Counted from the stretch's first letter, positions 7,259 through 29,140 are shown. The stretch: 32,000 bases of DNA from Candidatus Lokiarchaeum ossiferum (GCA_025839675.1 CP104013.1:5970001-6002000); one strand, 5' to 3'. The notes: generated from the letters alone by a model not told the origin. Translations and numbers: made by a program.

Positions 7259-8023
7259 TTAGACTTTTTTTCCCAATTCACTCTTTTCATTTTGTTTCCA
7301 ATACTCAAAATCATGATCCAAATCGTCCATATAGTGATCAATTGTTTCTGAAGATCCTGCATTGAAAAGTGCTTGAAAATCGTTTAATACTTTCTGATTG
7401 GCTTTTATTTCTTCTATTATCTTTGGAAAATTGAAGGATATTGCTTCTTGCAAAATTTGATCCAAAATTTGAGTTGCTTGAGTATATTGATGGTAGGAGA
7501 TCAGTTCGGGGATTTTTTTAAGTTGTGATTTTATTTCTTTTTGTTTATTCGCCTCTTCTTCGAGTAAATCTTGATGGAGTGCGGTTATAACTTCGATCAA
7601 ATTTTGATCTATAAACTGGCTAATCTTTTTTGAGTATAAATTCTGTTTAAATCTTCGGGTAAGTTGAATCGCTTCTGTCTTTCTGTTTTGTTCAATTAGA
7701 GTTTCAATTTTATCTTTCAATTCTAAAAATTGTACATTTATTGCAGTTTTTTTTGATAGATAAACTAAAGTGGTTGAGTTAAGACTGACATCTTCAAGTC
7801 GAAACTCCTTCTTCACTGTTTTAAGAATTGATGAAGCTTGGTCAAATTTTTTTTCTGAAATCGCTTGATTGATTTCTTCAATCTCCCTATGATGAATATC
7901 CATCAAGTGGTGGATTAGTTCATCTTGTTTGTTAGGAATCCGATCTGCGATCAGTTTCGCCAAAATTATTAATACTGCAAATATGAATATAAAAGTTATT
8001 CCAGATGGCATTTGATTGATCAT
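7259..8023 (-). CDS. Single-pass membrane protein of the 'LDxDFxxW-x7-LGKK' family (TM + cytoplasmic helical-repeat domain + conserved C-terminal peptide)
   Basis: N-terminal TM GITFIFIFAVLIILAKLIA, then a ~220-aa helical region with TPR-like segments (ISEKKFDQASSILKTV; ISYHQYTQATQILDQILQEA). The C-terminus is HYMDDLDHDFEYWKQNEKSELGKKV-stop. It is a paralogue of 25611-26399 and of the C-terminal third of 19727-21421. Confidence 0.75.
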   Translation of the reverse strand: MINQMPSGITFIFIFAVLIILAKLIADRIPNKQDELIHHLMDIHHREIEEINQAISEKKFDQASSILKTVKKEFRLEDVSLNSTTLVYLSKKTAINVQFLELKDKIETLIEQNRKTEAIQLTRRFKQNLYSKKISQFIDQNLIEVITALHQDLLEEEANKQKEIKSQLKKIPELISYHQYTQATQILDQILQEAISFNFPKIIEEIKANQKVLNDFQALFNAGSSETIDHYMDDLDHDFEYWKQNEKSELGKKV

Positions 8024-17786: not shown

Positions 17787-18117
17787 TTGAGTGAATCGTA
17801 CTTTTTGTAATTTTCACTTTTTTTAGTAATTTATCACCCATTGGCTTTGAATCCCCCATTTTATACCACATTTAATTTTGTCGAGCAAAAGTGGACACGT
17901 TTTTTAGCATTCACAAAATTTCCCGTTTGCTAGGCCAAATTAGTGGATCTTAAATGATCTGATGATGAGCATAAAATCATGCCCAATTTCAAGATTTTAG
18001 ATAATATAAAAACCAAAACAATTTTATTCTTGTTTTCCTTACACTAATATATTCAATATCTGGGGTGCATCAGCTATTCTAATATTCAAATATCGACGAC
18101 GGCCTTCAATATATCAA

Positions 18118-18600
18118 ATGCAGTTACATGATTATATCGGTCTGAAATCAACTCAAATACTTGAAATGTGGATTCCAAAGACATATCGCTATGTATATAA
18201 AAAATTTAAATGGTTTCCATTCAAGCGTCACGCCCGGAAAGCCCCTTCATTGATAGTTTCTAAATCCCAAACACGATTAGAGCATTATATATACGGAAAT
18301 ATTGCACATATTCTTCCCAAACGGAAGTACTTCATGCGATTTCGCAATCTTGGGCAAACAACTTATGATGATTATGCAAAAGGCATACTTCCGCAGTCAG
18401 AGTGGGATATGCTCCACACGCTACCAAAATTTTCAGGATATTTCAATCATATCTTTGAAATGAATGATCTTAGTTACTTTGATAAAATTCAAGATGAATT
18501 GGAGATACAGGGAGTTCATTTCAAAGGAATGTTCCTTCATGATATTATCGCATTTGAACTACTTCGTCGCCGCTTGGATTCAAAGATTATTCAGGTTTAG
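18118..18600 (+). CDS. IS transposase N-terminal ORF (putative DNA-binding part)
   Basis: 160-aa basic ORF ending 5 nt before the catalytic ORF, which is in the -1 frame. The two are separated by TAG plus an A6 run. No motif is recognised. The assignment rests on position only. Confidence 0.5.
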   Translation: MQLHDYIGLKSTQILEMWIPKTYRYVYKKFKWFPFKRHARKAPSLIVSKSQTRLEHYIYGNIAHILPKRKYFMRFRNLGQTTYDDYAKGILPQSEWDMLHTLPKFSGYFNHIFEMNDLSYFDKIQDELEIQGVHFKGMFLHDIIAFELLRRRLDSKIIQV

Positions 18601-18605
18601 AAAAA

Positions 18606-19607
18606 ATGTCATATTTTATTGGTGATAATCCTTTGAAGGGGATTTTACATGATTCTTACTACTTTCCCTCCGCGGATGATATCAGTTATATTATGAATCG
18701 TATCCCTCTTTCCCGAGTCATGGATTATTTTCATAACTTAGTTCGTGAAGCTATTGATCTTAGGATAATCATTCCTAGAATCATGATTTTTGATGGTCAA
18801 TTTGTCAGAACGAACTGTAACAACAATAAAAATTCAAAAACAACAAAGTATAATGATAGTGATGCTGGATATTATCGTCATTCAGGGAAGAAGCTTGGTG
18901 TTGGATTTGTTCATTGGACACTTTATGCGTATTGTGGGAGCTGGAAACGGGCACTTCCAATACATTTTGAGACTTTTCCAGGCAATATGAACGATAAACC
19001 AGCATCCCGCAAAACCTTTACCGCTTTTAATAATCTTAAAATTGGAGAGTGGAAGATGGTGATGGGTGATACAGGTACGTATTGTAAGAAAAGTCTGGAA
19101 TTTTATCAAGATCGGGGCATTTTTCCTTTGCTTCGTGCACCAAAACACCTTAAAACTCATCCAACTCGGGAATTAAAAAAAGGATTTTGGTTTAATTCCG
19201 ATTATTTTCCACCTGGATGGACAGAGCAAGACATATTATTAATGTATGCTCAACGACCTTTAGTTGAAGCAGGTCAATCTGCAAACCCTACATTTTATAA
19301 TCAAAAACGATTAAATACTCGTGGATTGAATATGGCCCACCTTCATCGTACCTTAACATATATACTGGATTTAATGCGAGCAATTACAGCATATAAATTA
19401 GGTAGAACTGACTTATTGACGAAATTAAGTGCATTTTCAACTGGAAGGGAGTTTAAAACAAACTCTATGTGGATTAAACTAGCACGAGATTCAGGTTTTT
19501 GTCAACTTCAAGAGATTGCTTTAAATCCACGACAAAAAGCATTTTGGGATAAACGTCGGAAGTGGGAAGCAGAATTAAGAAAAAAACGAAAAAACGGTAA
19601 ATTTTAA
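18606..19607 (+). CDS. DDE transposase catalytic ORF (IS4-like, Y-x2-R-x3-E signature)
   Basis: Candidate DDE residues are in IMIFDGQFV (D), VMGDTGTYCKK (D) and YAQRPLVEAGQS (Y(2)R(3)E). The C-terminal part is typical of the family: ..LNTRGLNMAHLHRTLTYILDLMRAITAYKLG. Confidence 0.8.
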   Translation: MSYFIGDNPLKGILHDSYYFPSADDISYIMNRIPLSRVMDYFHNLVREAIDLRIIIPRIMIFDGQFVRTNCNNNKNSKTTKYNDSDAGYYRHSGKKLGVGFVHWTLYAYCGSWKRALPIHFETFPGNMNDKPASRKTFTAFNNLKIGEWKMVMGDTGTYCKKSLEFYQDRGIFPLLRAPKHLKTHPTRELKKGFWFNSDYFPPGWTEQDILLMYAQRPLVEAGQSANPTFYNQKRLNTRGLNMAHLHRTLTYILDLMRAITAYKLGRTDLLTKLSAFSTGREFKTNSMWIKLARDSGFCQLQEIALNPRQKAFWDKRRKWEAELRKKRKNGKF

Positions 19608-19726
19608 GTTTTTAAAATTCACTCAATTAGTTTTCTTTTTTTCCGTGTATCATTCAATCTAAAATTTTTATTCCATTTGTTATTTCGGAACACTTATTAA
19701 TACAAATTTATACTAATAAATTAATT

Positions 19727-21421
19727 ATGAAGCGATTCGAAAAAGACATCATTACATTATTCATAAGACGATTTTCTGTCTTTCAGTCTTCCAGAAATGT
19801 TATATTTACATTTCTTTTATTGTTGACCGTCTATCTCTCTACTTTTTCTCAAATTTTTCGAAGTTCTGCTTCCACAGATGATACTCAATATTTTCTAACT
19901 ATAGATGGTAATTCCGAATTAGTTGCCTATTGTTATGGATCGGGCGATGGCACTGCTCAAAATCCTTATATCATCAATGACTATCGAAAAGGATTGCAAA
20001 GTGGATCGGGAATTCACATTAAAAATACTGACAAATACTTAATCCTAAATCACATTTTCATTTATACATCCGAATATACTGGTCTTTCCCCCTACGATGT
20101 AGGATTGAAACTTGAAAATTGTGAAAATGTTCTAATTCAAGAATCTATCCTCGAAAGATTTGATTTGGGAATCATCGTTTCCAATTGCACGTCCATTGAA
20201 ATTAAGAGAACTTATCTTACGAACAATTTCCCCAATCTTCGAGTTGAAGATGGATCCCAAAATATTTCAATTCATGAAAATTATATCAACGGAGGTACCT
20301 TTGGAATTCAATTCTTGAATATCGATCCATCCCATAGCATCGTTTTCAATAATTGTCTGCTTGATATTCAATTCGCGATTGATCTATTTTCATCCTCCGC
20401 CCAAGTCTACAGTAACTATTTTTATAATTGTGCTGAAACCTATCGTCTTTTAGGATCTGGGCATAATACCTTTACTGGTAGCGAAGAAAATTCTATAGAT
20501 AATATTGAAATCTTCCAAGCTCAACTCTATGCAATCGGTTATCAATTCTTTAACAATAATTCCCATTTTCCTCTATCTTATGTTACTAAAACAACATCTA
20601 CTTCCACCACTACAGCTTCTTTAACTAATTCCAATTCTTCTCCATCGAATAATAATGGTGATTTAATGGTCTTCATATTACTTGTTATTTTACTTCTCGC
20701 GTTATTGAGTCTTGTATATTTAAAAAAAATTAACTCCTTGATAAAAAGCAAGAGCATCGATCGCCAATGGAAAGTATTTCAGCATGAATTTCACACCCAA
20801 TTAAATGAACTCCAATCCCTTTATTCCCAGTATCACTATGAAGACGCCTTCAACCTTTATCGAACCTTGGAGTCAAATATCGAGTCCAATCTAATTTCCA
20901 AACTCACCGATTTTCTAGGTTTCACTCAAAAACAGATTTATCTTCATCTTTCTATCATCCAACAAAAGAACCATGTTCAAGAACTGATTAATGCTGCTGA
21001 ATATTCTTATGCCTATCAAACCATTCAGTCATTAATGGAAAAGATCGACCAAAATTCCTCGCCTCTTCAAGATCCTTCCCTTTATCAAGAATTACAAGCT
21101 CAATACAAATTCCTCCAAAATGAAAAAGATCAAACTCATGCTGAATATAGTTCCAAATTATCTGAAATACTTCTGCTTGTCCAAGACCAACAATATGACC
21201 AAGCACTCAACGATTTTGCTCACTTACAGAATAAATTAGAAAAATGGGATTTCACTGATCTCCTTTCTGTTGTAAAAAAACAAGTGCAAACCTTGAGCAA
21301 TTTTCGACAAACTTTTCAATTAGACACAAAGGTGTCTTTAACCTCATATATTGAAGACTTGGATGACGATTTTGAGGAATGGAATACCAATATCGGACTC
21401 CATCTCGGTAAAAAAAAATAG
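19727..21421 (+). CDS. Type-I membrane protein: right-handed beta-helix (NosD/PbH1-like) ectodomain, S/T-rich stalk, TM, cytoplasmic helical-repeat domain and LDxDFxxW-x7-LGKK C-terminus
   Basis: N-terminal hydrophobic segment VIFTFLLLLTVYLSTFSQIF. GDGTAQNPYIINDY is followed by beta-helix turns (IHIKNTDKYLILNHIFI, LKLENCENVLIQESIL, IIVSNCTSIEIKRTYL..). The stalk is TKTTSTSTTTASLTNSNSSPSNNNG and the TM is LMVFILLVILLLALLSLVYL, followed by KKINSLIKSKS (positive-inside). Three helical hairpins (SQYHYEDAFNLYRTL; AAEYSYAYQTIQSL; QDQQYDQALNDFAHL) precede the end ..SYIEDLDDDFEEWNTNIGLHLGKKK-stop. Confidence 0.85.
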   Translation: MKRFEKDIITLFIRRFSVFQSSRNVIFTFLLLLTVYLSTFSQIFRSSASTDDTQYFLTIDGNSELVAYCYGSGDGTAQNPYIINDYRKGLQSGSGIHIKNTDKYLILNHIFIYTSEYTGLSPYDVGLKLENCENVLIQESILERFDLGIIVSNCTSIEIKRTYLTNNFPNLRVEDGSQNISIHENYINGGTFGIQFLNIDPSHSIVFNNCLLDIQFAIDLFSSSAQVYSNYFYNCAETYRLLGSGHNTFTGSEENSIDNIEIFQAQLYAIGYQFFNNNSHFPLSYVTKTTSTSTTTASLTNSNSSPSNNNGDLMVFILLVILLLALLSLVYLKKINSLIKSKSIDRQWKVFQHEFHTQLNELQSLYSQYHYEDAFNLYRTLESNIESNLISKLTDFLGFTQKQIYLHLSIIQQKNHVQELINAAEYSYAYQTIQSLMEKIDQNSSPLQDPSLYQELQAQYKFLQNEKDQTHAEYSSKLSEILLLVQDQQYDQALNDFAHLQNKLEKWDFTDLLSVVKKQVQTLSNFRQTFQLDTKVSLTSYIEDLDDDFEEWNTNIGLHLGKKK

Positions 21422-21600
21422 AAGTATCAAAACCTGAACCTACCACTTCATCTCCCATATAAAGATTATCACTGGCTTTTTTCCGCCCATTGTGAAAATT
21501 TTATAGGGACTACTCAACTCTTTATCCGTGATTTTTTCACAATGGGCGTAAATGAGAATTTTCCATGATGTTCCTTTTCCTATTTTCCGCTTCCTTTGTT
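21422..21600 (+). repeat. Flank-repeat copy C (internally rearranged, contains a 15-bp perfect palindromic pair)
   Basis: CTCCCATATAAAGATTATCACTGGCTTTTTTCCGCCCATTGTGAAAATT matches CTCCTATATAAAGATCGAGGCTGAC.TTTTCCCGCCCATGGTGAAAATT of copies B and D. TTCCATGATGTTCCTTTTCC matches CTCCATGATCCTTTTCCC. The middle segment is replaced. Confidence 0.6.
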
Positions 21601-21747
21601 ATTTTACTCCACGATTAATATTTCTACAAAATCAAAGGAGTTTTTAAATTGTAAATATTTTTTCTTTCAATATTTGGTATTATTGGTGGTTTACTACCGT
21701 CAAATTTATTATTGTTATTCAGTAATATTTAGTTAGGTGAGTTCACT

Positions 21748-24075
21748 GTGAAATTGGTTCACACATATTCCAAAAAGCAGAAAATCAGTTTTATCACTAT
21801 ACTATCGATAATTATTGCATCGGCAATAACAATACCAATTATTCTTCATAATTCCAAAAATTCCATAGAAGATCAAACTCCTCCAAATAAACCTCAAATA
21901 CTTGAATCTCTCTGTTTTACAAATAATTCCGCACTTGATTCCTTTTTTGAGAACTCCAACAAGACAGGGTTAAATGATGAAAATTCTTATCAATTGAAAA
22001 ACCTCGTTTTCAATACTACCGAGAATTACAATCCCCATTACGGTTCTTTTTCTTTTGCCTATAATATTGCTGTATCTTTGACCAATATTACTCGTTTTGT
22101 TAAAATTATTAATTGTACTTTTCAAGGATATTCAGATGCTATCTCTTTAATAAACTCTGAAAATATTGAAGTTTCAAATTGTTCATTTATTCAATGTCTC
22201 GATTCAATTCATATAATTGAATCTAAAAAAATCCAGATCAGAAGCAGTGTTTTTTTCCAATTTTATCAAGCAGTAAAATTATATAATTCTACAGATTGTG
22301 AAATATTTGACAATTATGGGTCGGATGGACAAAATGCAATATCATTGCGCGGAAGTCCATTGAATGAGATCAAAAATAATGAATTTTTCTTAGCTAAATC
22401 AAATAATAAATTACAAAGGGTTTATAGAGGTATTGCTTTATTCGAATCAAATCAAAATTCAATTCTTGATAATACCGTTGGATTACCTGCTGGCTTTCGA
22501 TTACATGGTCTTCGGTTGGAAAGTTCTAATAATAATAATGTATCATACAACTCACTTCTTAATTGTTCGATACTTTTTTTAAAAAGTCAAAATAATTCAA
22601 ATATCTCAAGTAACACATATAACGGTGGTGCTCTCACATATCTAGAAAATCAAAAAGATTTTCAATATCACGACACCTCTGGAAGTTTACTTGTGCTTAA
22701 TAATTGTTCCAATGTGAATATTTCAAGCATTGACTTTATTTCTGATAGTTATGGGGTGGTACTACATAATTGCTCATCTATTAATCTAGATCGTCTCTCA
22801 TTTACTTCTAATTTAAAAAATCAAAAATTTGCATCTGCAATTTGGATAGAAGAATCAAAACAAATCAACATAACCCACTCAAATTTCACTTACCGATTTA
22901 ATGCAATTTTTGCACACTATTCAGATTACTTAAACATGAATAATAATATATTTGATCAATGTGATTCAAGCCTTGAAGCATCTGATGCGACTAGTGTGTA
23001 TTTCTCGAATAATCAAATGGAAAACTCTACATTATTGTTGGATACATATACAAATTTAGCTCTCCTCGAAGATAGATCTCAATTTTACTCAAATAGAATA
23101 AATGGAAAAAATTTAGTATTTCTATTTAATCAATCCAACTTAATTTTTACTGATCCCTTAGATAATTCCACAATATTTGCTTATCATTGCCACAACATTT
23201 CAATCGGAGATTTTTCAGTTGCAAAAACATCAGGTATCTTGCTAAGAAAATGTACTGAAGTTTCTATAAGAAATGTAAATTTCACAGACAACTTTAATTT
23301 TGGAATTTATTTGATGAATTCTGACTATGTAAAGATCGAAAAATCTCGGTTTCAAAATCAGAAGTTTGGCATTTTCACAAATTATGGGACAATAATTAAA
23401 ATCCATGACAATTCCTTCATTTCAAATGGAATCGGGGCATCATTATGTAGTCTTCGCATATTAGAGTTCAATAATAATCTTCTCGAAAGAAATGGGGATG
23501 GTATAAAACTATGGGATATAACTGGTGGGGAATTTTACCACAATGTCGTCTCACACAATTTTAAAAACGGGATAAATACAGCAAATTGTGAGGATATTAA
23601 TATTCAATCCAACGAGATCTCAAATAATGATGCATCTGGCATATTAATTGTAGGAACTGATGATAATTGTTTTATAATTGAAAACATCATTTCCCAAAAT
23701 CAAGAAAACGGAGTTTCTATTTTCAGCTCTCGAGAGATATGCCTTTCAGAAAATATCATCAATATGAATAAATTTTATGGTCTTTTCTTTTCAAATTCAA
23801 TAGAAAATATTGTCTATTTTAATGAAATTCGAAATAATTCCTTGACCTCAATTCGAGAAGATATAAATAATCATACGATCTGGCTCGATGATTCGTTCTA
23901 TCTTGAATCCACTGTGATTATTGCGAATGAGGGAAAATACTCTTACTCTCGGTCTAGATCCATTAGTGGTGGATGGTATAATTTCTTTGAATTTCAAATT
24001 CAGTTTAACTGCGAAACAACAATTGATACCGAACTATATTCAGGAGAGAAAAATACTTATGTTAAAAACACCTAA
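21748..24075 (+). CDS. Large N-terminally anchored right-handed beta-helix (PbH1/NosD-like) surface glycoprotein
   Basis: GTG start. The signal-anchor is ISFITILSIIIASAITIPIIL. More than 20 parallel beta-helix repeat turns follow (e.g. INCTFQGYSDAISLINSENIEVSNCSF.., NGDGIKLWDITGGEFYHNVVSHNFKNGINTANCEDINIQSNEISNNDASGILI). By eye there are about two dozen N-x-S/T sequons. There is no C-terminal TM. Confidence 0.85.
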   Translation: MKLVHTYSKKQKISFITILSIIIASAITIPIILHNSKNSIEDQTPPNKPQILESLCFTNNSALDSFFENSNKTGLNDENSYQLKNLVFNTTENYNPHYGSFSFAYNIAVSLTNITRFVKIINCTFQGYSDAISLINSENIEVSNCSFIQCLDSIHIIESKKIQIRSSVFFQFYQAVKLYNSTDCEIFDNYGSDGQNAISLRGSPLNEIKNNEFFLAKSNNKLQRVYRGIALFESNQNSILDNTVGLPAGFRLHGLRLESSNNNNVSYNSLLNCSILFLKSQNNSNISSNTYNGGALTYLENQKDFQYHDTSGSLLVLNNCSNVNISSIDFISDSYGVVLHNCSSINLDRLSFTSNLKNQKFASAIWIEESKQINITHSNFTYRFNAIFAHYSDYLNMNNNIFDQCDSSLEASDATSVYFSNNQMENSTLLLDTYTNLALLEDRSQFYSNRINGKNLVFLFNQSNLIFTDPLDNSTIFAYHCHNISIGDFSVAKTSGILLRKCTEVSIRNVNFTDNFNFGIYLMNSDYVKIEKSRFQNQKFGIFTNYGTIIKIHDNSFISNGIGASLCSLRILEFNNNLLERNGDGIKLWDITGGEFYHNVVSHNFKNGINTANCEDINIQSNEISNNDASGILIVGTDDNCFIIENIISQNQENGVSIFSSREICLSENIINMNKFYGLFFSNSIENIVYFNEIRNNSLTSIREDINNHTIWLDDSFYLESTVIIANEGKYSYSRSRSISGGWYNFFEFQIQFNCETTIDTELYSGEKNTYVKNT

Positions 24076-25276
24076 AAGAAACTGGATTTCATTCGCCTTT
24101 CTATTAATTATTGTAGGATCTACCATATCAGTAGGGGGTGTTTCCTTTGATAGTACATCTCAGAGAAATAAAGTTATTTCTACAATTATTGCATCATCTG
24201 ACGAATTTATGTTTGATCCACTGATAGAATTTACGGACGAGGGGATTATTTCTGCTTTAGATTTAAAAAACCACTTATTTGGCAATGGAACTGAGCAAGA
24301 TCCGTATATTTTGAAAGATTTAAGTCTGAACATACAGGACTATCGACCTGAGTATGAATTATATATACGCTTTAGTTACTCCAATAAACACGTACGAATT
24401 GAAAATTGCTCTTTTAAGTATAGTTATTCCAGTTATTCATGGCCGGGAGATCCTAGTGGTGGAATTTACATCCATGGAAGTAAGAATGTCCATATTAATA
24501 ATTGTACATTTCTTAAAATGAGTGTTTTCCCAACAGCCATATATAATTCCAGCCATATCATCATTTCGAATTCGTCCTACTACTTGAATGACAATATAGC
24601 TATCACTGTTCTCGGTGGCGATTTCATCAGCGTGTTGAACTCAACATTCAAATCCACTGCTGGTGGAATTAAAATGAAAGATGTAAATAACAGTTACATT
24701 GATGGGAATTCTCTTATCCTTAATCAAAACCCTGGAATTATATTCACTGGAAATTCTAAGAATATTTCTATTTCTCATAATCATATCAAACAGAATACCC
24801 TAGGAATTGTGATATCTGGATCTGAAGAACGATGGTATAGTAACGGGGTCTTAACAAGTGAGACTATTAAATTCGTAGAAAATGTCTCTATTTTCCAAAA
24901 TATTGTCGAATATTCTACACTACAAGGGATTTCGATCTGGAAAACAATTAATTGCTCCATTTGGGGGAATCTGCTTAATAATAATATTGAAAATGGGATC
25001 CTGTTAGATGAAGTTGATAAGGTTCTCGTCCAAGAGAATAATATCTCTCATAATTTAAAGTACGGTGTTAATATTGTCAATTCAACCAATATTAATCTAA
25101 TTGATAATTACTTCACACAAAATGGTATTTCTAATATCTTTGGAAAATATGAGGACTCCCTAAAAACTTCTTCATTCAAATGGGGATATTGGCTCTTCGC
25201 TTCTCTTGGTGTCATTGCTGTCCCAATCTTGATTATTGTAGTGAAAAAATACCAAAATCAAAAAAAAACGATCTAA
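24059..25276 (+). CDS. Right-handed beta-helix surface protein with N-terminal signal/TM and C-terminal TM anchor
   Basis: The ATG at 24059 (MLKTPKRNWISFAFLLIIVG) overlaps the upstream stop by 17 nt and is preceded by GGAG 12 nt upstream. GTEQDPYILKDL is followed by PbH1-like turns (IYIHGSKNVHINNCTF, NPGIIFTGNSKNISISHNHI, ENGILLDEVDKVLVQENNISHNLKYGVNIVNSTNINLIDN). The C-terminal TM is WLFASLGVIAVPILIIVV followed by KKYQNQKK. The track's start at 23921 is read-through in the overlap frame. Confidence 0.8.
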   Translation: MLKTPKRNWISFAFLLIIVGSTISVGGVSFDSTSQRNKVISTIIASSDEFMFDPLIEFTDEGIISALDLKNHLFGNGTEQDPYILKDLSLNIQDYRPEYELYIRFSYSNKHVRIENCSFKYSYSSYSWPGDPSGGIYIHGSKNVHINNCTFLKMSVFPTAIYNSSHIIISNSSYYLNDNIAITVLGGDFISVLNSTFKSTAGGIKMKDVNNSYIDGNSLILNQNPGIIFTGNSKNISISHNHIKQNTLGIVISGSEERWYSNGVLTSETIKFVENVSIFQNIVEYSTLQGISIWKTINCSIWGNLLNNNIENGILLDEVDKVLVQENNISHNLKYGVNIVNSTNINLIDNYFTQNGISNIFGKYEDSLKTSSFKWGYWLFASLGVIAVPILIIVVKKYQNQKKTI

Positions 25277-25582
25277 ATCTTCATGGGTACAAATTTTTTA
25301 AATTCCTTGTTCCCTCAACTCTTCTGGATTAGGAACAAAATAAACCCATCTGTTTTTTACAATTACTTCTATATCTGTTCAAGATACCACCGCTTGTTTT
25401 TGTTATGGCTTTTGCGTAAACGCATTGATGACATGATGATATCTCAACTTCACAGCCATTAACTAATTGTTGTTCAATTTCCCTTCTGCGCTCCTCCTCC
25501 CTCTCCATATGGGTTCTTGTGGATATTATGGAAATGATTGATTTTGGTATAATCCCTTCAGCTATATGACGAAAGCAAAATC

Positions 25583-25590
25583 GATATAAG
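25583..25590 (+). promoter_or_regulatory. TATA-like box (GATATAAG) ending 21 nt upstream of the ATG at 25611
   Basis: Sequence and spacing match the other putative leaderless promoters in the window. Confidence 0.4.
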
Positions 25591-25610
25591 AATCCAAAAA
25601 GTAATTTACA

Positions 25611-26399
25611 ATGAAAAATGAAGCAAGCTATAATCAAGATGGGTTAGTTATATTCCTCTCCCTCTCATCCATTATCCTATGTGTGATGATACTTAGTACA
25701 ATCATCGAAAATCTCAAGAAAAGGCAGACAAAAGAAGAGCTTTGGCAGAAATTTCTACGAAAAAATCAATCTCACTTAATACATGTTCAGGATTTATGCG
25801 ATGCAGGTCATTTTGAGGAATCTAGTAATCTTTACAGATCGGTAAGATCCAAAATCAATCGCTCATGTCTAAAAATCTTGGAAGAACATTTAAAACCCGT
25901 TTTGAAGAAAAATCATCTCAATCTACGTGTAAGTCAAAATTCCACCCAAATTCATGCATTATTAGACGATCAACAATATATTGAAGCATATCGAAAAACT
26001 CAGGTTATTTTGCATGAAATTGAGAATGCAGATGTATCTTTACTTAACAATCCTCAACTAATTATTGAATTAAAATCAATTCACACCGAATTAAAACAAC
26101 AAATTTGTGAAAAACGTCAAGATATTCAAGAAAGAATTAACGCCACCTCCCATTTAATTAAATCACAGCAATACGATCTTCTTATTTGTAAATTTGATGA
26201 ATTACTCCAGGAACTTCAGCAATGGCCCTTTATTGTTCTTAAAAAAGAATTAAATGAACGTTATCAACTCTTTCTTAAATTCCAAAAAACTTTCCAACTA
26301 AATAGAGATGATAGATTAACCAATTTTCTTGAAAAGCTCGATACCGATTTTCAAGATTGGACATCCAAAGAAATAGCCACATTTGGTAAAAAAATATAA
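25611..26399 (+). CDS. Single-pass membrane protein of the LDxDFxxW-x7-LGKK family (short ectodomain, TM, cytoplasmic helical-repeat domain)
   Basis: MKNEASYNQDG, then TM LVIFLSLSSIILCVMILSTII, then ENLKKRQTKEE. The helical hairpins are CDAGHFEESSNLYRSV, DDQQYIEAYRKTQVIL and KSQQYDLLICKFDELL. The end is ..NFLEKLDTDFQDWTSKEIATFGKKI-stop. Confidence 0.8.
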   Translation: MKNEASYNQDGLVIFLSLSSIILCVMILSTIIENLKKRQTKEELWQKFLRKNQSHLIHVQDLCDAGHFEESSNLYRSVRSKINRSCLKILEEHLKPVLKKNHLNLRVSQNSTQIHALLDDQQYIEAYRKTQVILHEIENADVSLLNNPQLIIELKSIHTELKQQICEKRQDIQERINATSHLIKSQQYDLLICKFDELLQELQQWPFIVLKKELNERYQLFLKFQKTFQLNRDDRLTNFLEKLDTDFQDWTSKEIATFGKKI

Positions 26400-26900
26400 A
26401 TTTGCATACATTATCTCATATTCGAAGAGCTGGGAGATAAATTAATTCAAAATAACACGTATTTTTTTCCCATTGGCTTCTTTCCTTCACTCTCGAACTT
26501 ACCATTTTCTCGCTGCTTTTTCCTAATCTATTGCATCTTCTCCTATATAAAGATCGAGGCTGACATTTTCCCGCCCATGGTGAAAATTCCTTTTGCATCC
26601 GCTTAAATTTCCATCCGCCTCTTTTTCGAGGTGATCTTTGAGGAAGATCCTCCAAAATGCCCCTTTTTCTCGTTTTCCGATCAGTTTTCTCTCGCATTCC
26701 ACCCATTTCTTTCCCCTCGGATCTCTCCATGATCCTTTTCCCCTCCTTACATGATCCTCCCTTCAACACTTCTTGCATGATTTTCTTCAATCCCCGATCA
26801 TTTTAGCTCTTCCAATGATCCTTCTCCGCTCATTGTTCCCCCTCCCCTCTCCCCTCCCATTCCCGATCGGTTATCACTTCCCACCAAAATCACAGCCTTT
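26400..26900 (+). repeat. Flank-repeat copy D (longest copy), strongly pyrimidine-rich on the + strand
   Basis: It shares 26421-26480 and 26553-26755 with copy A, 26500-26650 with copy B, and both ends with copy C. It contains the box TATATAAAGATCGAGGCTGAC (26544-26564) and the tract TTCCCCCTCCCCTCTCCCCTCCCATTCCC (26836-26864). Confidence 0.75.
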
Positions 26901-27121
26901 CATATCAAACTTTAAAGTTTTGTTGCAAAATGATCATCTTTTTTTCACATTCCGATGAACCACATGCGATTTTTCGTTTTTAAGGGTGTCAAATGAAAAT
27001 CGTTTCACAAATTTTAAATAAAAACGAACGAATTCTTAATCACTCTTAGTACGACCGCATCCATTTGGGTAACGGTTATACTAATATCTCTCGTAATGAA
27101 TTAAAAAGAGTGAATAACATC

Positions 27122-29140
27122 ATGTCTGAAAGTGATAAAGAAAAACAAAAACTCTACTATCCTTCCCCTGAGCTTGCGACCACCGCACGTGTCAAAAACA
27201 TGGAAGAATACAAGAAAATTTGGAAACATTCCGTGGAAAAACCACGCGAATTCTGGGCTGAAGAAGCTAAAATGGTTGACTTCTTTACTCCTTATAAAGA
27301 AGTATGGACTGGTTCCACCGATGATGACTTTGTAGGCAAATGGTTTACCGAAGGGAAACTCAATGTTGCGTACAATTGTATTGATCGCTGGGTTGAAAAA
27401 GGTTTTGGTGATGAAGAATCCCTTATCTGGATGGGTGAAGATGATACTATTAAATCTTATTCCTTCAGCCAATTAAAGGATGAAGTTAGCAAAGCAGCCA
27501 ACGCATTGAAATCACTCGGTGTCAAAAAAGGAGATCGTGTCTGCCTCTGGCTCCCTATGATTTCTGAACTCGCCATTATTATGTTAGCCTGTGCCCGAAT
27601 CGGTGCCATTCACTCTATCGTCTTTGGTGGATTCTCTGCTGAATCAGTGAAAGACCGAATTGATGATTCTGAATGTAAAGTCCTCGTTGTGGCTGATGAA
27701 GTCAAACGAGCTGGCAAAGCCAAACCAATGAAAATTAACTTGAAAGGTATTATTGAACAATGTCCATCCATCGAACATGTTGCTGTTGTCAAAGTTACTG
27801 GCAATCCAACCTACGAATATGAAAAAGACGTTGATTTCTCTGCTTTAATGGCTACACAATCTGCCGATTGCCCATGTGAACCAATGGATTCTGAAGATGT
27901 CCTTTTCATCCTCTACACCAGTGGAACCACCGGCAAGCCAAAGGGTGTTGTGCATACCACCGGAGGCTACCTCGTTTATGGAATGTCCACCAACAAATAC
28001 GTCTGGGATTACTCTTGTCTTCTAGACCTCAAAGGTGCCGAACCAAAAGATCGTGATGTCTGGTACTGCACCGCTGACATTGGCTGGATTACTGGTCATA
28101 CTCAAATCATCTATTCCCCTCTTGCACTCGGTGCTAAAACCGTTATGTATGAAGGTACCCCCACATGGCCACACAAAGGTCGTTTCTGGGAAATTTGTCA
28201 AAAATTAGGTGTTACTCATTTCTACACCGCACCAACCGCTATTCGTGCTCTCATGAAATACGGAGCTGAAGAAGTAAATAAATGGGATCTCTCCAAGCTT
28301 AAAATGTTAGGCACCGTAGGAGAAGTCTGCAACTGGCCTGAGTGGAAGTGGTACTGGGATGTTGTAGGAAAAGGAACTGGTGGAGAAAAACCAGTCGGTC
28401 GTCCAATTGTCGATTCTTATTGGCAAACAGAGACCGGATCTTATATGATGGTCAATTTTGGCTCTATTACCCCAATGAAGCCTGGATCTTGTACATTCCC
28501 ATTCTTCGGATGCAATCCAGTATTATTAAATGAAGAAGGTGAAAAAATCAACACTCCTATGACCCAAGCCTACTTTGCCTATGATATGCCATGGCCAGGT
28601 TTAATGCGAACCGTCTGGGGAGATCATGACCGATTCGTGTCCACCTACTTAACCAAATTCAAGAACCATTACTTCACTGGTGATTATGCTCAAATTGATG
28701 AAAAAGGCTATTACTTTATCTTAGGGCGATCCGATGATGTAATCAAGGTGTCTGGCCATCGCTTAGGGTCTGCGGAAGTGGAAGCAGCAATTAACTCCCA
28801 CGATGCAGTTGCCGAAAGTGCAGTCTGTCCATACCCACACTCAATGAAAGGATCCACCATCTTTGCTTATGTAACCTTAATGAGCGGAGTAGAAGGAAAT
28901 GAAGAATTAAAAACCGACATTGTGAAACACGTACGTGCGATGGCTGGACCTGCTGTGAAGCCTGAAGTCATCATGTTCTCTGATGCGTTACCAAAGACCC
29001 GATCCGGAAAGATTATGCGACGTGTCTTAAAGGCTATTGCCCTCCAAGGCGATATTGGCAACGTAATGACTTTAGCTAACCCTGAAGTTGTCCAAGCATT
29101 AGTGGACGAGCGTGCCAAACTCGGCGAAATCAAATTCTAA
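27122..29140 (+). CDS. acs: Acetyl-CoA synthetase (AMP-forming)
   Basis: Full-length match to the Acs pattern: PREFWAEEAK..., AMP-binding motif YTSGTTGKPKGVVHTTGGY, WITGH, YWQTETG, GRSDDVIKVSGHRLG and SGKIMRR near the C-terminus. The ATG at 27122 (MSESDKEKQKLYYPSPEL) aligns with typical Acs N-termini. The track's 27065 is TTG. Confidence 0.95.
   Translation: MSESDKEKQKLYYPSPELATTARVKNMEEYKKIWKHSVEKPREFWAEEAKMVDFFTPYKEVWTGSTDDDFVGKWFTEGKLNVAYNCIDRWVEKGFGDEESLIWMGEDDTIKSYSFSQLKDEVSKAANALKSLGVKKGDRVCLWLPMISELAIIMLACARIGAIHSIVFGGFSAESVKDRIDDSECKVLVVADEVKRAGKAKPMKINLKGIIEQCPSIEHVAVVKVTGNPTYEYEKDVDFSALMATQSADCPCEPMDSEDVLFILYTSGTTGKPKGVVHTTGGYLVYGMSTNKYVWDYSCLLDLKGAEPKDRDVWYCTADIGWITGHTQIIYSPLALGAKTVMYEGTPTWPHKGRFWEICQKLGVTHFYTAPTAIRALMKYGAEEVNKWDLSKLKMLGTVGEVCNWPEWKWYWDVVGKGTGGEKPVGRPIVDSYWQTETGSYMMVNFGSITPMKPGSCTFPFFGCNPVLLNEEGEKINTPMTQAYFAYDMPWPGLMRTVWGDHDRFVSTYLTKFKNHYFTGDYAQIDEKGYYFILGRSDDVIKVSGHRLGSAEVEAAINSHDAVAESAVCPYPHSMKGSTIFAYVTLMSGVEGNEELKTDIVKHVRAMAGPAVKPEVIMFSDALPKTRSGKIMRRVLKAIALQGDIGNVMTLANPEVVQALVDERAKLGEIKF

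Follow-up and report, generated by a model that had tools for sequence, protein, structure and literature searches.

Do neighbouring surface-protein genes of an Asgard archaeon encode the parts of one split receptor, or separate proteins that share a domain? The question is raised by four consecutive plus-strand genes, here called g1 to g4, in a 32,000-nt stretch of the genome of Candidatus Lokiarchaeum ossiferum B35 (GCA_025839675.1, CP104013.1:5970001-6002000; the whole stretch is referred to as the window, and positions are counted from its first nucleotide). In an earlier note, the product of g1, in which a beta-helix ectodomain is joined through a transmembrane (TM) segment to a cytoplasmic helical tail, was read as a Rosetta stone: the ectodomain-only products of g2 and g3 would work together with the tail-only product of g4, or with that of a paralogue at 7259-8023 (referred to as 7259 in the rest of the text), as a split version of the same receptor or adhesin. 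The reading that we favour, with a probability of about one half, is that these genes code for independent surface proteins that share a portable docking or assembly tail and lie in a strain-variable island.

A shared cytoplasmic tail on variable ectodomains

Open reading frame (ORF) calls and the NCBI annotation agreed on all four plus-strand genes, at the positions given in the note, and an exact look-up found their products identical to NEF87_005082-NEF87_005085 of strain B35 (100% identity between g4 and NEF87_005085). The first gene, g1 (19727..21421, +; NEF87_005082), codes for a 564-aa protein with an N-terminal hydrophobic signal or anchor, a NosD-type beta-helix, a serine/threonine (S/T) stalk at residues 276-311, a TM segment at residues 313-331 and an all-alpha tail of ~230 aa ending in YIEDLDDDFEEW-x8-GKKK. 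The 262-aa product of g4 (25611..26399, +; NEF87_005085) consists of a 13-aa exterior stub, a TM segment at residues 14-32, three helical-hairpin units and a terminal motif helix ending in FLEKLDTDFQDW-x8-GKKI. The minus-strand gene 7259 (7259..8023; NEF87_005068, annotated as 250 aa) likewise codes for a TM segment and a tail, ending in YMDDLDHDFEYW-x8-GKKV. No tail is present in the product of g2 (21748..24075, +; NEF87_005083; 775 aa), an Asn-rich beta-helix, while that of g3 (24059..25276, +; NEF87_005084; 405 aa) comprises an N-terminal signal or anchor, a beta-helix, a TM segment at residues 377-395 and a basic tail of 10 aa. A hydropathy scan confirmed the topologies previously described for g1 to g4, including the single N-terminal hydrophobic segment of g2 and the very short tail of g3.

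The cytoplasmic part of g1 had been proposed to be paralogous to g4 and 7259, and BLASTP bore this out, aligning residues 302-563 of g1 with residues 2-261 of g4 (E=3e-28, 28% identity) and g4 with 7259 (E=1e-13). The shared tail of ~230 aa is all-alpha and ends in Y-x-E-x-LDxDFxxW-x8-GKK, in which L-D-x-D-F-x-x-W and G-K-K are invariant across the three tails. It is a genuine domain, cytoplasmic and modular. Its motif was found at five places in the window, compared to none expected in shuffled sequence; the copies in g1, g4 and 7259 are real, but the total is five rather than the three counted previously, the extra two lying in decayed fragments. One of these is the 3′ remnant of a P0005/P0006-like tail gene (17094..17375, +), which keeps the motif YLEELDDDFEEWTSKKTSKVGKK and has lost its stop codon; it covers profile positions 192-228 (E=2.6e-13) and is 71% identical to the last 35 aa of P0006. 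The other is a frameshifted tail pseudogene (17450..17786, +) in two pieces, covering profile positions 131-175 and 170-228 and ending in YIENLDENFTEW-x8-GKKN. A strict back-translated motif pattern gave no match in genome and metagenome contig collections, which evidently did not include L. ossiferum.

Only eight close tail members were found when a HMMER profile of the three tails was compared to 1.84 billion representative proteins, and further members came from a hidden Markov model (HMM) scan of related loci. At least six ectodomain types are joined to the tail. It follows a NosD beta-helix in g1, in the 566-aa orthologue of g1 from a metagenome relative (L003:6527-8227, 54% identity over the full length) and in P0006; DUF285 repeats in P0008; an SBBP propeller in a 916-aa protein (L006:16246-18996); an ectodomain stub of ~100 aa in P0005; and essentially no ectodomain in g4, in 7259 and its counterpart P0004, and in P0007 from another species. 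Fused, short-ectodomain and tail-only forms are all seen in related genomes, and the expectation that fused and split forms coexist there was correct. The tail of g4 is 45% identical to that of P0005 and 42% to that of the fused P0006, compared to 27% for g1, and is thus closest to P0005 and P0006 rather than to its neighbour; at the position equivalent to g4, the metagenome relative carries a fused gene. Because its closest relatives, P0005 and P0006, carry ectodomains, g4 looks like an ectodomain-less derivative and not like a purpose-built adaptor. A tblastn search of 25277-25610 revealed no ectodomain remnant upstream of g4.

The AlphaFold2 model of g4 is all-alpha (predicted local distance difference test score, pLDDT, 88.2) and shows, in order, a long TM-to-cytoplasm helix (H5-64), helical hairpins, an 8-residue loop and the terminal motif helix. 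Foldseek comparison of this model with the PDB gave nothing beyond weak TPR-like matches of a generic kind (best E=0.38), including two chains of the 26S proteasome. Neither Pfam nor NCBIfam contains a family matching the tail, and no PDB sequence matches it; for the tail, this upholds the earlier statement that no system with this architecture had been described. Against ArnB_C (PF18677, cut-off 26.3 bits), 7259 scored 16.9 bits, and g1 and g4 gave no match. The tail is a new, previously undescribed element of the locus.

The ectodomains themselves are of a common type. Relative to the Pfam gathering cut-offs (23.6 bits for NosD, PF05048; 25.9 bits for Beta_helix, PF13229), g1 matched NosD at 25.9 bits, g2 matched Beta_helix at 128.4 bits (E 2.5e-37) as well as NosD (E 1.3e-31), and g3 matched Beta_helix at 76.4 bits (E 2.5e-21), all above cut-off. 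In the AlphaFold2 model of g1 (overall pLDDT 76.8), residues 55-242 of the ectodomain form strands only (pLDDT ~80-94), the stalk at 276-311 is disordered (pLDDT ~27-32), and a TM helix leads into a confident all-alpha cytoplasmic domain. The top Foldseek matches of the g1 ectodomain are pectate lyases, GH87, the capsule depolymerase VexL and the adhesin PfbA (probability ~1.0, E 1.5e-3 to 1e-2). The description of g1 to g3 as beta-helix surface-type proteins therefore holds, through Pfam for all three and the fold model for g1, as does that of the S/T stalk. They have their fold in common with other right-handed beta-helix proteins (pectate lyases, PfbA, capsule depolymerases and phage tailspikes) but differ from these families in being membrane-anchored by TM segments, and g1 adds a 230-aa cytoplasmic domain that those families lack. 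Nor are they orthologues of NosD: g1 scored 19.2 bits against the NosD equivalog TIGR04247 (cut-off 300), and nos genes are absent among the Pfam-annotated B36 neighbours and the window ORFs.

The ectodomains had also been described as rich in N-x-S/T sequons. The count of about two dozen in g2 was right (23, compared to 19 expected from composition), but the enrichment is mostly compositional (g2 contains 14% Asn); g3 has 12 compared to 7.6 expected, and g1, with 5 compared to 7.7, falls below expectation. Between the ectodomain of g1 and either g2 or g3, BLASTP gave no match at E<=1e-3, while g1 does match orthologous fused proteins. Each of g1, g2 and g3 forms a singleton cluster at 90% identity, and a word-indexed homologue search found no relative of g2 better than E=3e-13. 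NosD/Beta_helix proteins constitute orthogroup 24 of the genome, among the 25 largest, in a list that is apparently ordered by size. Reading the C-terminus of g3 directly from the sequence (...SSFKWGYWLFASLGVIAVPILIIVVKKYQNQKKTI) revealed no archaeosortase-type anchor (PGF/PEF/VPXXXP); anchoring of the PGF-CTERM type was rejected, as g3 lacks the signature and the TM segments of g1 and g4 are followed by 230 aa.

Expression was assessed from the rows listed of a published proteome table (bioRxiv 10.1101/2025.11.30.690169), whose GNAMCCOK identifiers we mapped through ACS by molecular weight, with an uncertainty of plus or minus one gene. GNAMCCOK_05126, an abundant protein of 75.3 kDa, fits the ACS gene at 27065-29140. 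With this anchor, the detection of GNAMCCOK_05123 (log2 ~18.0) and GNAMCCOK_05124 (~16.7) in 16/16 samples indicates that two of g2, g3 and g4 are expressed, the exact assignment being subject to the same shift of one gene. Neither protein is among the rows listed for the Lokiactin co-immunoprecipitation. Cryo-electron tomography of L. ossiferum has revealed unordered surface proteins and no S-layer (PMC9834061), and this surface-protein coat covers an actin-filled, motile protrusion network (PMC9834061; bioRxiv 10.1101/2025.11.30.690169).

A strain-variable island

Strain B36 shares 97.2% average nucleotide identity (ANI) with B35 (bioRxiv 10.64898/2026.02.13.705702), and a blastn synteny map showed the flanks of the locus to be conserved at 89-96%. 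A segment of the window at 17275..25317, containing the second tail pseudogene, a DDE transposase, g1, g2 and g3, is nevertheless specific to B35 and absent at the syntenic B36 locus, where L002 8620-9694 aligns with window 16199-17275 and L002 9707-10923 with window 25317-26534. B36 keeps 7259 and also g4 together with 294 nt of its upstream region. In place of the B35 segment, the B36 locus carries a gene for a 962-aa beta-helix protein, P0005 and a Laminin_G_3 protein.

Only 3 of 250 residues differ between 7259 and P0004 of B36 (~99% identity). The g4 orthologue of B36 is 82% identical, with a ratio of nonsynonymous to synonymous substitution rates (dN/dS) of 0.55 compared to 0.05-0.29 for its neighbours, and it has a 1-nt deletion in a poly-A tract (L002 10001-10800), so that the annotated protein P0002 ends at 229 aa. 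In the shifted frame, ...FLEKLDTKFQDWSSKETSALGKKL can still be read. Either the sequence is in error at this base or the gene was inactivated very recently.

A second tail-gene island of B36 (L006; CP163304 5338756-5361683) has the genes for P0008 and for the 916-aa protein of SBBP propeller and tail on either side of an 888-aa beta-helix/PKD gene. P0008 combines a DUF285 ectodomain with a duplicated tail, and the island also holds a tail fragment at 19172-19453 as well as several genes for glycosyltransferases and UDP-glucose dehydrogenase. The B35 locus, for its part, is a strain-variable hot-spot shaped by duplication, insertions and deletions, and insertion sequence (IS) elements.

Two transposases were found in the window. 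The DDE-type transposase, on the left of the strain-specific segment, is encoded by two plus-strand ORFs in different frames (18118-18600 and 18606-19607; DDE_Tnp_1 E=4e-4, below cut-off), a split that reflects either a programmed frameshift or a pseudogene. An IS110-like transposase, assigned by eye (ORF 13981..15498, -), lies in a B35-specific insertion at ~13910-16199 that is absent in B36. Terminal inverted repeats were found neither for the segment 17275-25317 nor for the DDE transposase, and for want of them a composite transposon spanning 17275-25317 was rejected.

Intergenic regions of the island hold a repeated element of ~100-280 nt, with copies 76-94% identical and an invariant core, CCTATATAAAGATCG...CCATGGTGAAAATTCCTTTTG, followed by a T-run. 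One copy (26494..26776, +) has the core CCTATATAAAGATCGAGGCTGAC...ATGGTGAAAATTCC; further copies lie in the window at 12583-12811, 17309-17461 and 21448-21500, and elsewhere at L002 7316-7531, 12294-12426 and 13917-14165 and at L003 8303-8381, 17893-17985 and 18838-19007. The element directly follows the stop codons of tail genes, lies at junctions of strain-specific segments and is conserved in a second species. Its core and T-run look like a TATA box followed by a short transcribed unit, and it could be a recombination substrate, a miniature inverted-repeat transposable element, a promoter or a small RNA. A structured RNA was rejected, as no Rfam match and no covariation were found. GC skew is strongly negative (-0.23 to -0.36) at window positions 20001-22000 and 26001-27000, corresponding to the g1 tail with the region downstream and to the region downstream of g4 that includes the element. 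Two other genes for predicted surface or membrane proteins belong to the same island: one for an LVIVD/TSP3 surface protein with a C-terminal TM segment (9300..10928, +), conserved in B36, and one for a 210-aa N-terminally anchored protein with the UniRef label DUF1616 (16288-16920, -), 96% identical in B36.

A terminal motif common to other Asgard proteins

Weaker matches of the tail profile were type I proteins with NHL-propeller, TSP3 or NosD plus fn3 ectodomains, S/T stalks, a TM segment and helical hairpins. The distant relatives, one of which comes from a Promethearchaeota metagenome-assembled genome (MAG), end with a segment of ~45 aa resembling a helix-turn-helix (HTH) or winged helix ('RIKIDDIA...GFKIDGDYL') and then LDxQFxxWxxKExxKxGKI. 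The window proteins do not contain this winged helix, which they either lost or never possessed. Alignment of the Lokiarchaeum tails with the winged-helix-plus-motif alignment by hhalign gave a probability of 93% (E=3.3e-7) over the last 32 columns. Judged from this profile comparison, the Lokiarchaeum terminal motif is homologous to a wider Asgard module, which consists of a PCI/HTH-like winged helix and LDxQFxxWxxKExxKxGK. One distant relative, P0011, matched ArnB_C at 37.4 bits, above the cut-off of 26.3.

We defined the motif of the module as L-[DNE]-x-x-F-x-x-W, 8 residues and G-K, located on the cytoplasmic side of the protein at its C-terminus or close to it, a pattern carried by g1, g4 and 7259. 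In a collection of one genome per species (185,579 species), a relaxed motif pattern matched six places: one in a MAG of Ca. Sigynarchaeum springense, one in a 'Promethearchaeota archaeon' MAG and four in one unclassified 'uncultured archaeon' MAG, where three were confirmed and the fourth was not confirmed as a motif-bearing ORF. The same pattern matched 16 JGI metagenome contigs. Among the proteins that terminate in the module are an MFS transporter, a Gtr1/Rag-Arf-like GTPase and a TIR protein, as well as LRR, fn3 and SBBP proteins. Fusions of the winged helix with LDxQFxxW...GK are encoded at L025:327-1289, L026:6577-8907, L021:1795-3249, L023:67-1251 and L012:3361-4932, a set that includes a Gtr1/Rag-Arf-like small GTPase, a TM protein with TIR, the end of a 12-TM MFS transporter and an LRR protein. 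In L012 the module adjoins a DDRGK-type winged helix, the second winged helix of that protein (34 bits, above cut-off), with zinc ribbons.

A small protein composed of a TM segment, the winged helix and the motif shows conserved synteny in three lineages, the Sigynarchaeum MAG (L008 4273-4917), the Promethearchaeota MAG (L011 2742-3341) and a metagenome contig (L018 7604-8539), with neighbours that include no surface-protein genes, suggesting that it may be a housekeeping member of the family. The neighbours shared between these loci code for a 158-aa protein, a metallophosphoesterase-like protein, a 431-437-aa protein and membrane proteins. For the winged helix, Pfam gave only sub-threshold PCI and HTH hints (best PCI 19.7 bits compared to a cut-off of 22) and the PDB nothing, and no family was found in Pfam, NCBIfam or the PDB for the module of winged helix and motif.

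Independent surface proteins, a split receptor or debris

Whether the four genes form one functional unit depends in part on how they are transcribed. As had been noted, g2 and g3 overlap translationally, by 17 nt (stop at 24075, ATG at 24059), and for this reason they are probably co-transcribed. Three transcription units (g1, g2-g3 and g4) are suggested by gaps of 326 nt between g1 and g2 and of 334 nt between g3 and g4, by the T-runs that follow g1 and by the AT-rich, TATA-like boxes that precede g2 and g4. Since g4 retains its own upstream region in B36, where g3 is missing, it appears to be transcribed independently. A single operon running from g1 to g4 thus found no support in these sequence features.

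Pairing of g2 or g3 with g4 or 7259 in the membrane, rebuilding a g1-like link from the surface to the cytoplasm, would be geometrically possible, as g3 ends in a TM segment with a 10-aa tail and g4 exposes only a 13-aa outer stub; the fused g1 adjoins the split forms, and two of g2, g3 and g4 are expressed. Beta-helix genes and tail genes are close to each other in B35, B36 and the metagenome relative, the distance from an ectodomain-only beta-helix gene to a tail gene being a few kb at most (products of 962 aa and 888 aa in B36, and of 839 aa and 1045 aa in the metagenome relative). However, this proximity is indistinguishable from a general clustering of surface-protein genes, and g2 and g3, with g1, are missing in B36 while g4, with its upstream region, and 7259 persist. 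Moreover, the genes on either side of 7259 are a Metallophos gene and one for a hydrolase, with no beta-helix gene beside it, and tail-only TM proteins of the wider family have conserved neighbourhoods that contain no surface-protein genes. Of the domain-fusion argument, the tail half stands, as g1 does hold homologues of separately encoded parts, but the relationship of the g1 ectodomain to those of g2 and g3 is only a generic one, and Rosetta-stone inference cannot be relied on where domains are promiscuous. This applies to both parts, tail or motif being fused to NosD, DUF285, SBBP, NHL, TSP3, fn3, MFS, TIR, GTPase and LRR, and because the tail is promiscuous the link drawn from g1 is weak. 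The split receptor fails most of the tests applied; it is the weakest part of the earlier proposal, weakly supported, and we consider it improbable. The fission of a P0006-like fused gene into g3 and g4 was rejected as well, since the g3 ectodomain has only generic fold similarity to P0006 and g1, the TM segments differ and 25277-25610 holds no remnant.

Could g4 and the tail fragments instead be evolutionary debris, functionless remnants of fused genes that decay in a hot-spot of IS activity, recombination and tandem duplication? Within 5 kb there are two transposases as well as two or three decayed tail fragments, the strain-specific insertions and deletions are flanked by the repeated element, the nearest relatives of g4 have ectodomains, and g4 combines a dN/dS of 0.55 with a frameshifted B36 copy. 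Yet the B35 copy of g4 is intact and retains every residue of the motif, dN/dS is below 1, the B36 frameshift concerns one base in a homopolymer with the motif readable downstream and could be a sequencing error, 7259 is ~99% conserved between the strains, the tail-only form recurs in another species (P0007), and no ectodomain remnant precedes g4; we regard this decay as unlikely. Signalling offers another explanation, in which a ligand bound at the ectodomain would change the conformation or oligomeric state of the tail and thereby engage cytoplasmic effectors, the tail-only forms being regulators. The type I architecture with its long continuous TM-to-cytoplasm helix (H5-64 in g4), the co-occurrence of the wider module with TIR, Rag/Arf-like GTPase and LRR domains, and the weak similarity to ArnB_C, a regulatory interaction domain, all agree with it. 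The tail nevertheless contains neither an enzymatic domain nor a known one for signalling, its motif is also found at the end of a transporter and of small TM proteins, and the ArnB_C scores of the window proteins fall below cut-off, making a signalling role very unlikely.

We therefore return to independent surface proteins with a shared tail. Under this reading, g1, the g2-g3 pair and g4 would be separate transcription units, each product being a membrane-anchored protein in its own right. The ectodomains, of the NosD/pectate-lyase fold, are predicted to be exposed at the surface as glycan-binding or adhesin-like proteins. The tail, with three TPR-like helical hairpin units and an amphipathic, acidic-aromatic end helix (LDxDFxxW ... 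GKK), is a lineage-specific portable module, borne within the genus by beta-helix, DUF285, SBBP-propeller, short or no ectodomains. Because the terminal motif is invariant while the surrounding protein context changes, it most likely acts in trans, either docking the proteins to one common cytoplasmic partner or bundling tails together. In this scheme g4 and 7259 would be ectodomain-less members that present the tail at the membrane as a scaffold, competitor or co-assembling subunit, rather than dedicated adaptors for g2 and g3.

Several observations weigh against this reading. The docking partner of the tail is putative only. The motif helix (pLDDT ~84 in g1 and 59-79 in g4) could instead pack intramolecularly, as the models carry no contact information. 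The window proteins do not have the winged helix of the wider module, so that their mechanism may differ. Rapid evolution of g4 and its frameshift in B36 fit decay as well as function, beta-helix genes adjoin tail genes in every island seen, which leaves room for a looser functional coupling, and the mapping of the proteome identifiers could be off by one gene in either direction.

Known systems provide partial parallels. PCI proteins (of the proteasome lid, CSN and eIF3) combine helical repeats, a winged helix and a C-terminal helix, and their terminal helices bundle to nucleate complexes; DDRGK1/UFBP1 is a membrane-anchored winged-helix protein. In the wider Asgard module the parts follow one another in the same order, from TPR-like hairpins through a winged helix, with its 'GFKIDGDYL' hairpin, to a conserved terminal helix. 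The proteins described here differ in that they are integral membrane proteins with ectodomains, whose assembly through the terminal helix is predicted, and the window proteins have neither the winged helix nor a match to PCI (PF01399), the best relative scoring 19.7 bits, below the cut-off of 22. We treat this resemblance as a lead and make no claim of membership. The helical hairpins of P0011 match ArnB_C, the helical interaction domain of the Sulfolobus archaellum regulator ArnB, above cut-off, but the window proteins do not; they are membrane-anchored, have no vWA domain and have no ArnA-like partner nearby. Integrin beta with talin and cadherin with catenin exemplify type I adhesion receptors with conserved docking tails, and the variant-specific surface proteins (VSPs) of Giardia join a variable ectodomain to an invariant TM-CRGKA tail. 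By analogy, the Lokiarchaeum tail proteins resemble them in combining variable ectodomains, a single TM segment and a conserved tail common to many paralogues; there is no relationship in sequence or fold.

L. ossiferum is among the few cultured Asgard archaea, and the way in which its surface is linked to its cytoplasm bears directly on models of eukaryogenesis. The locus supplies concrete candidate surface proteins and an undescribed tail that is common to many different ectodomains, and the invariant peptide of 20-25 residues could be used as bait for a cytoplasmic partner. Even strains that share 97% ANI do not have the same repertoire of surface proteins, a difference of importance for syntrophy, for contact between cells and for the host range of viruses. 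A broader and doubtful proposal is that the C-terminal helix (LDxxFxxW ... GK) is a portable Asgard signal for sorting, docking or assembly, read by one conserved cytoplasmic machinery, for which the cytoskeleton, a trafficking or ESCRT-type system or a PCI-like assembly platform would be candidates. If it were true, g4 and 7259 would belong to that platform as membrane-tethered subunits or regulators, and the type I beta-helix, propeller and LRR surface proteins would be prokaryotic counterparts of eukaryotic adhesion receptors or of cargo recognized by a tail motif.

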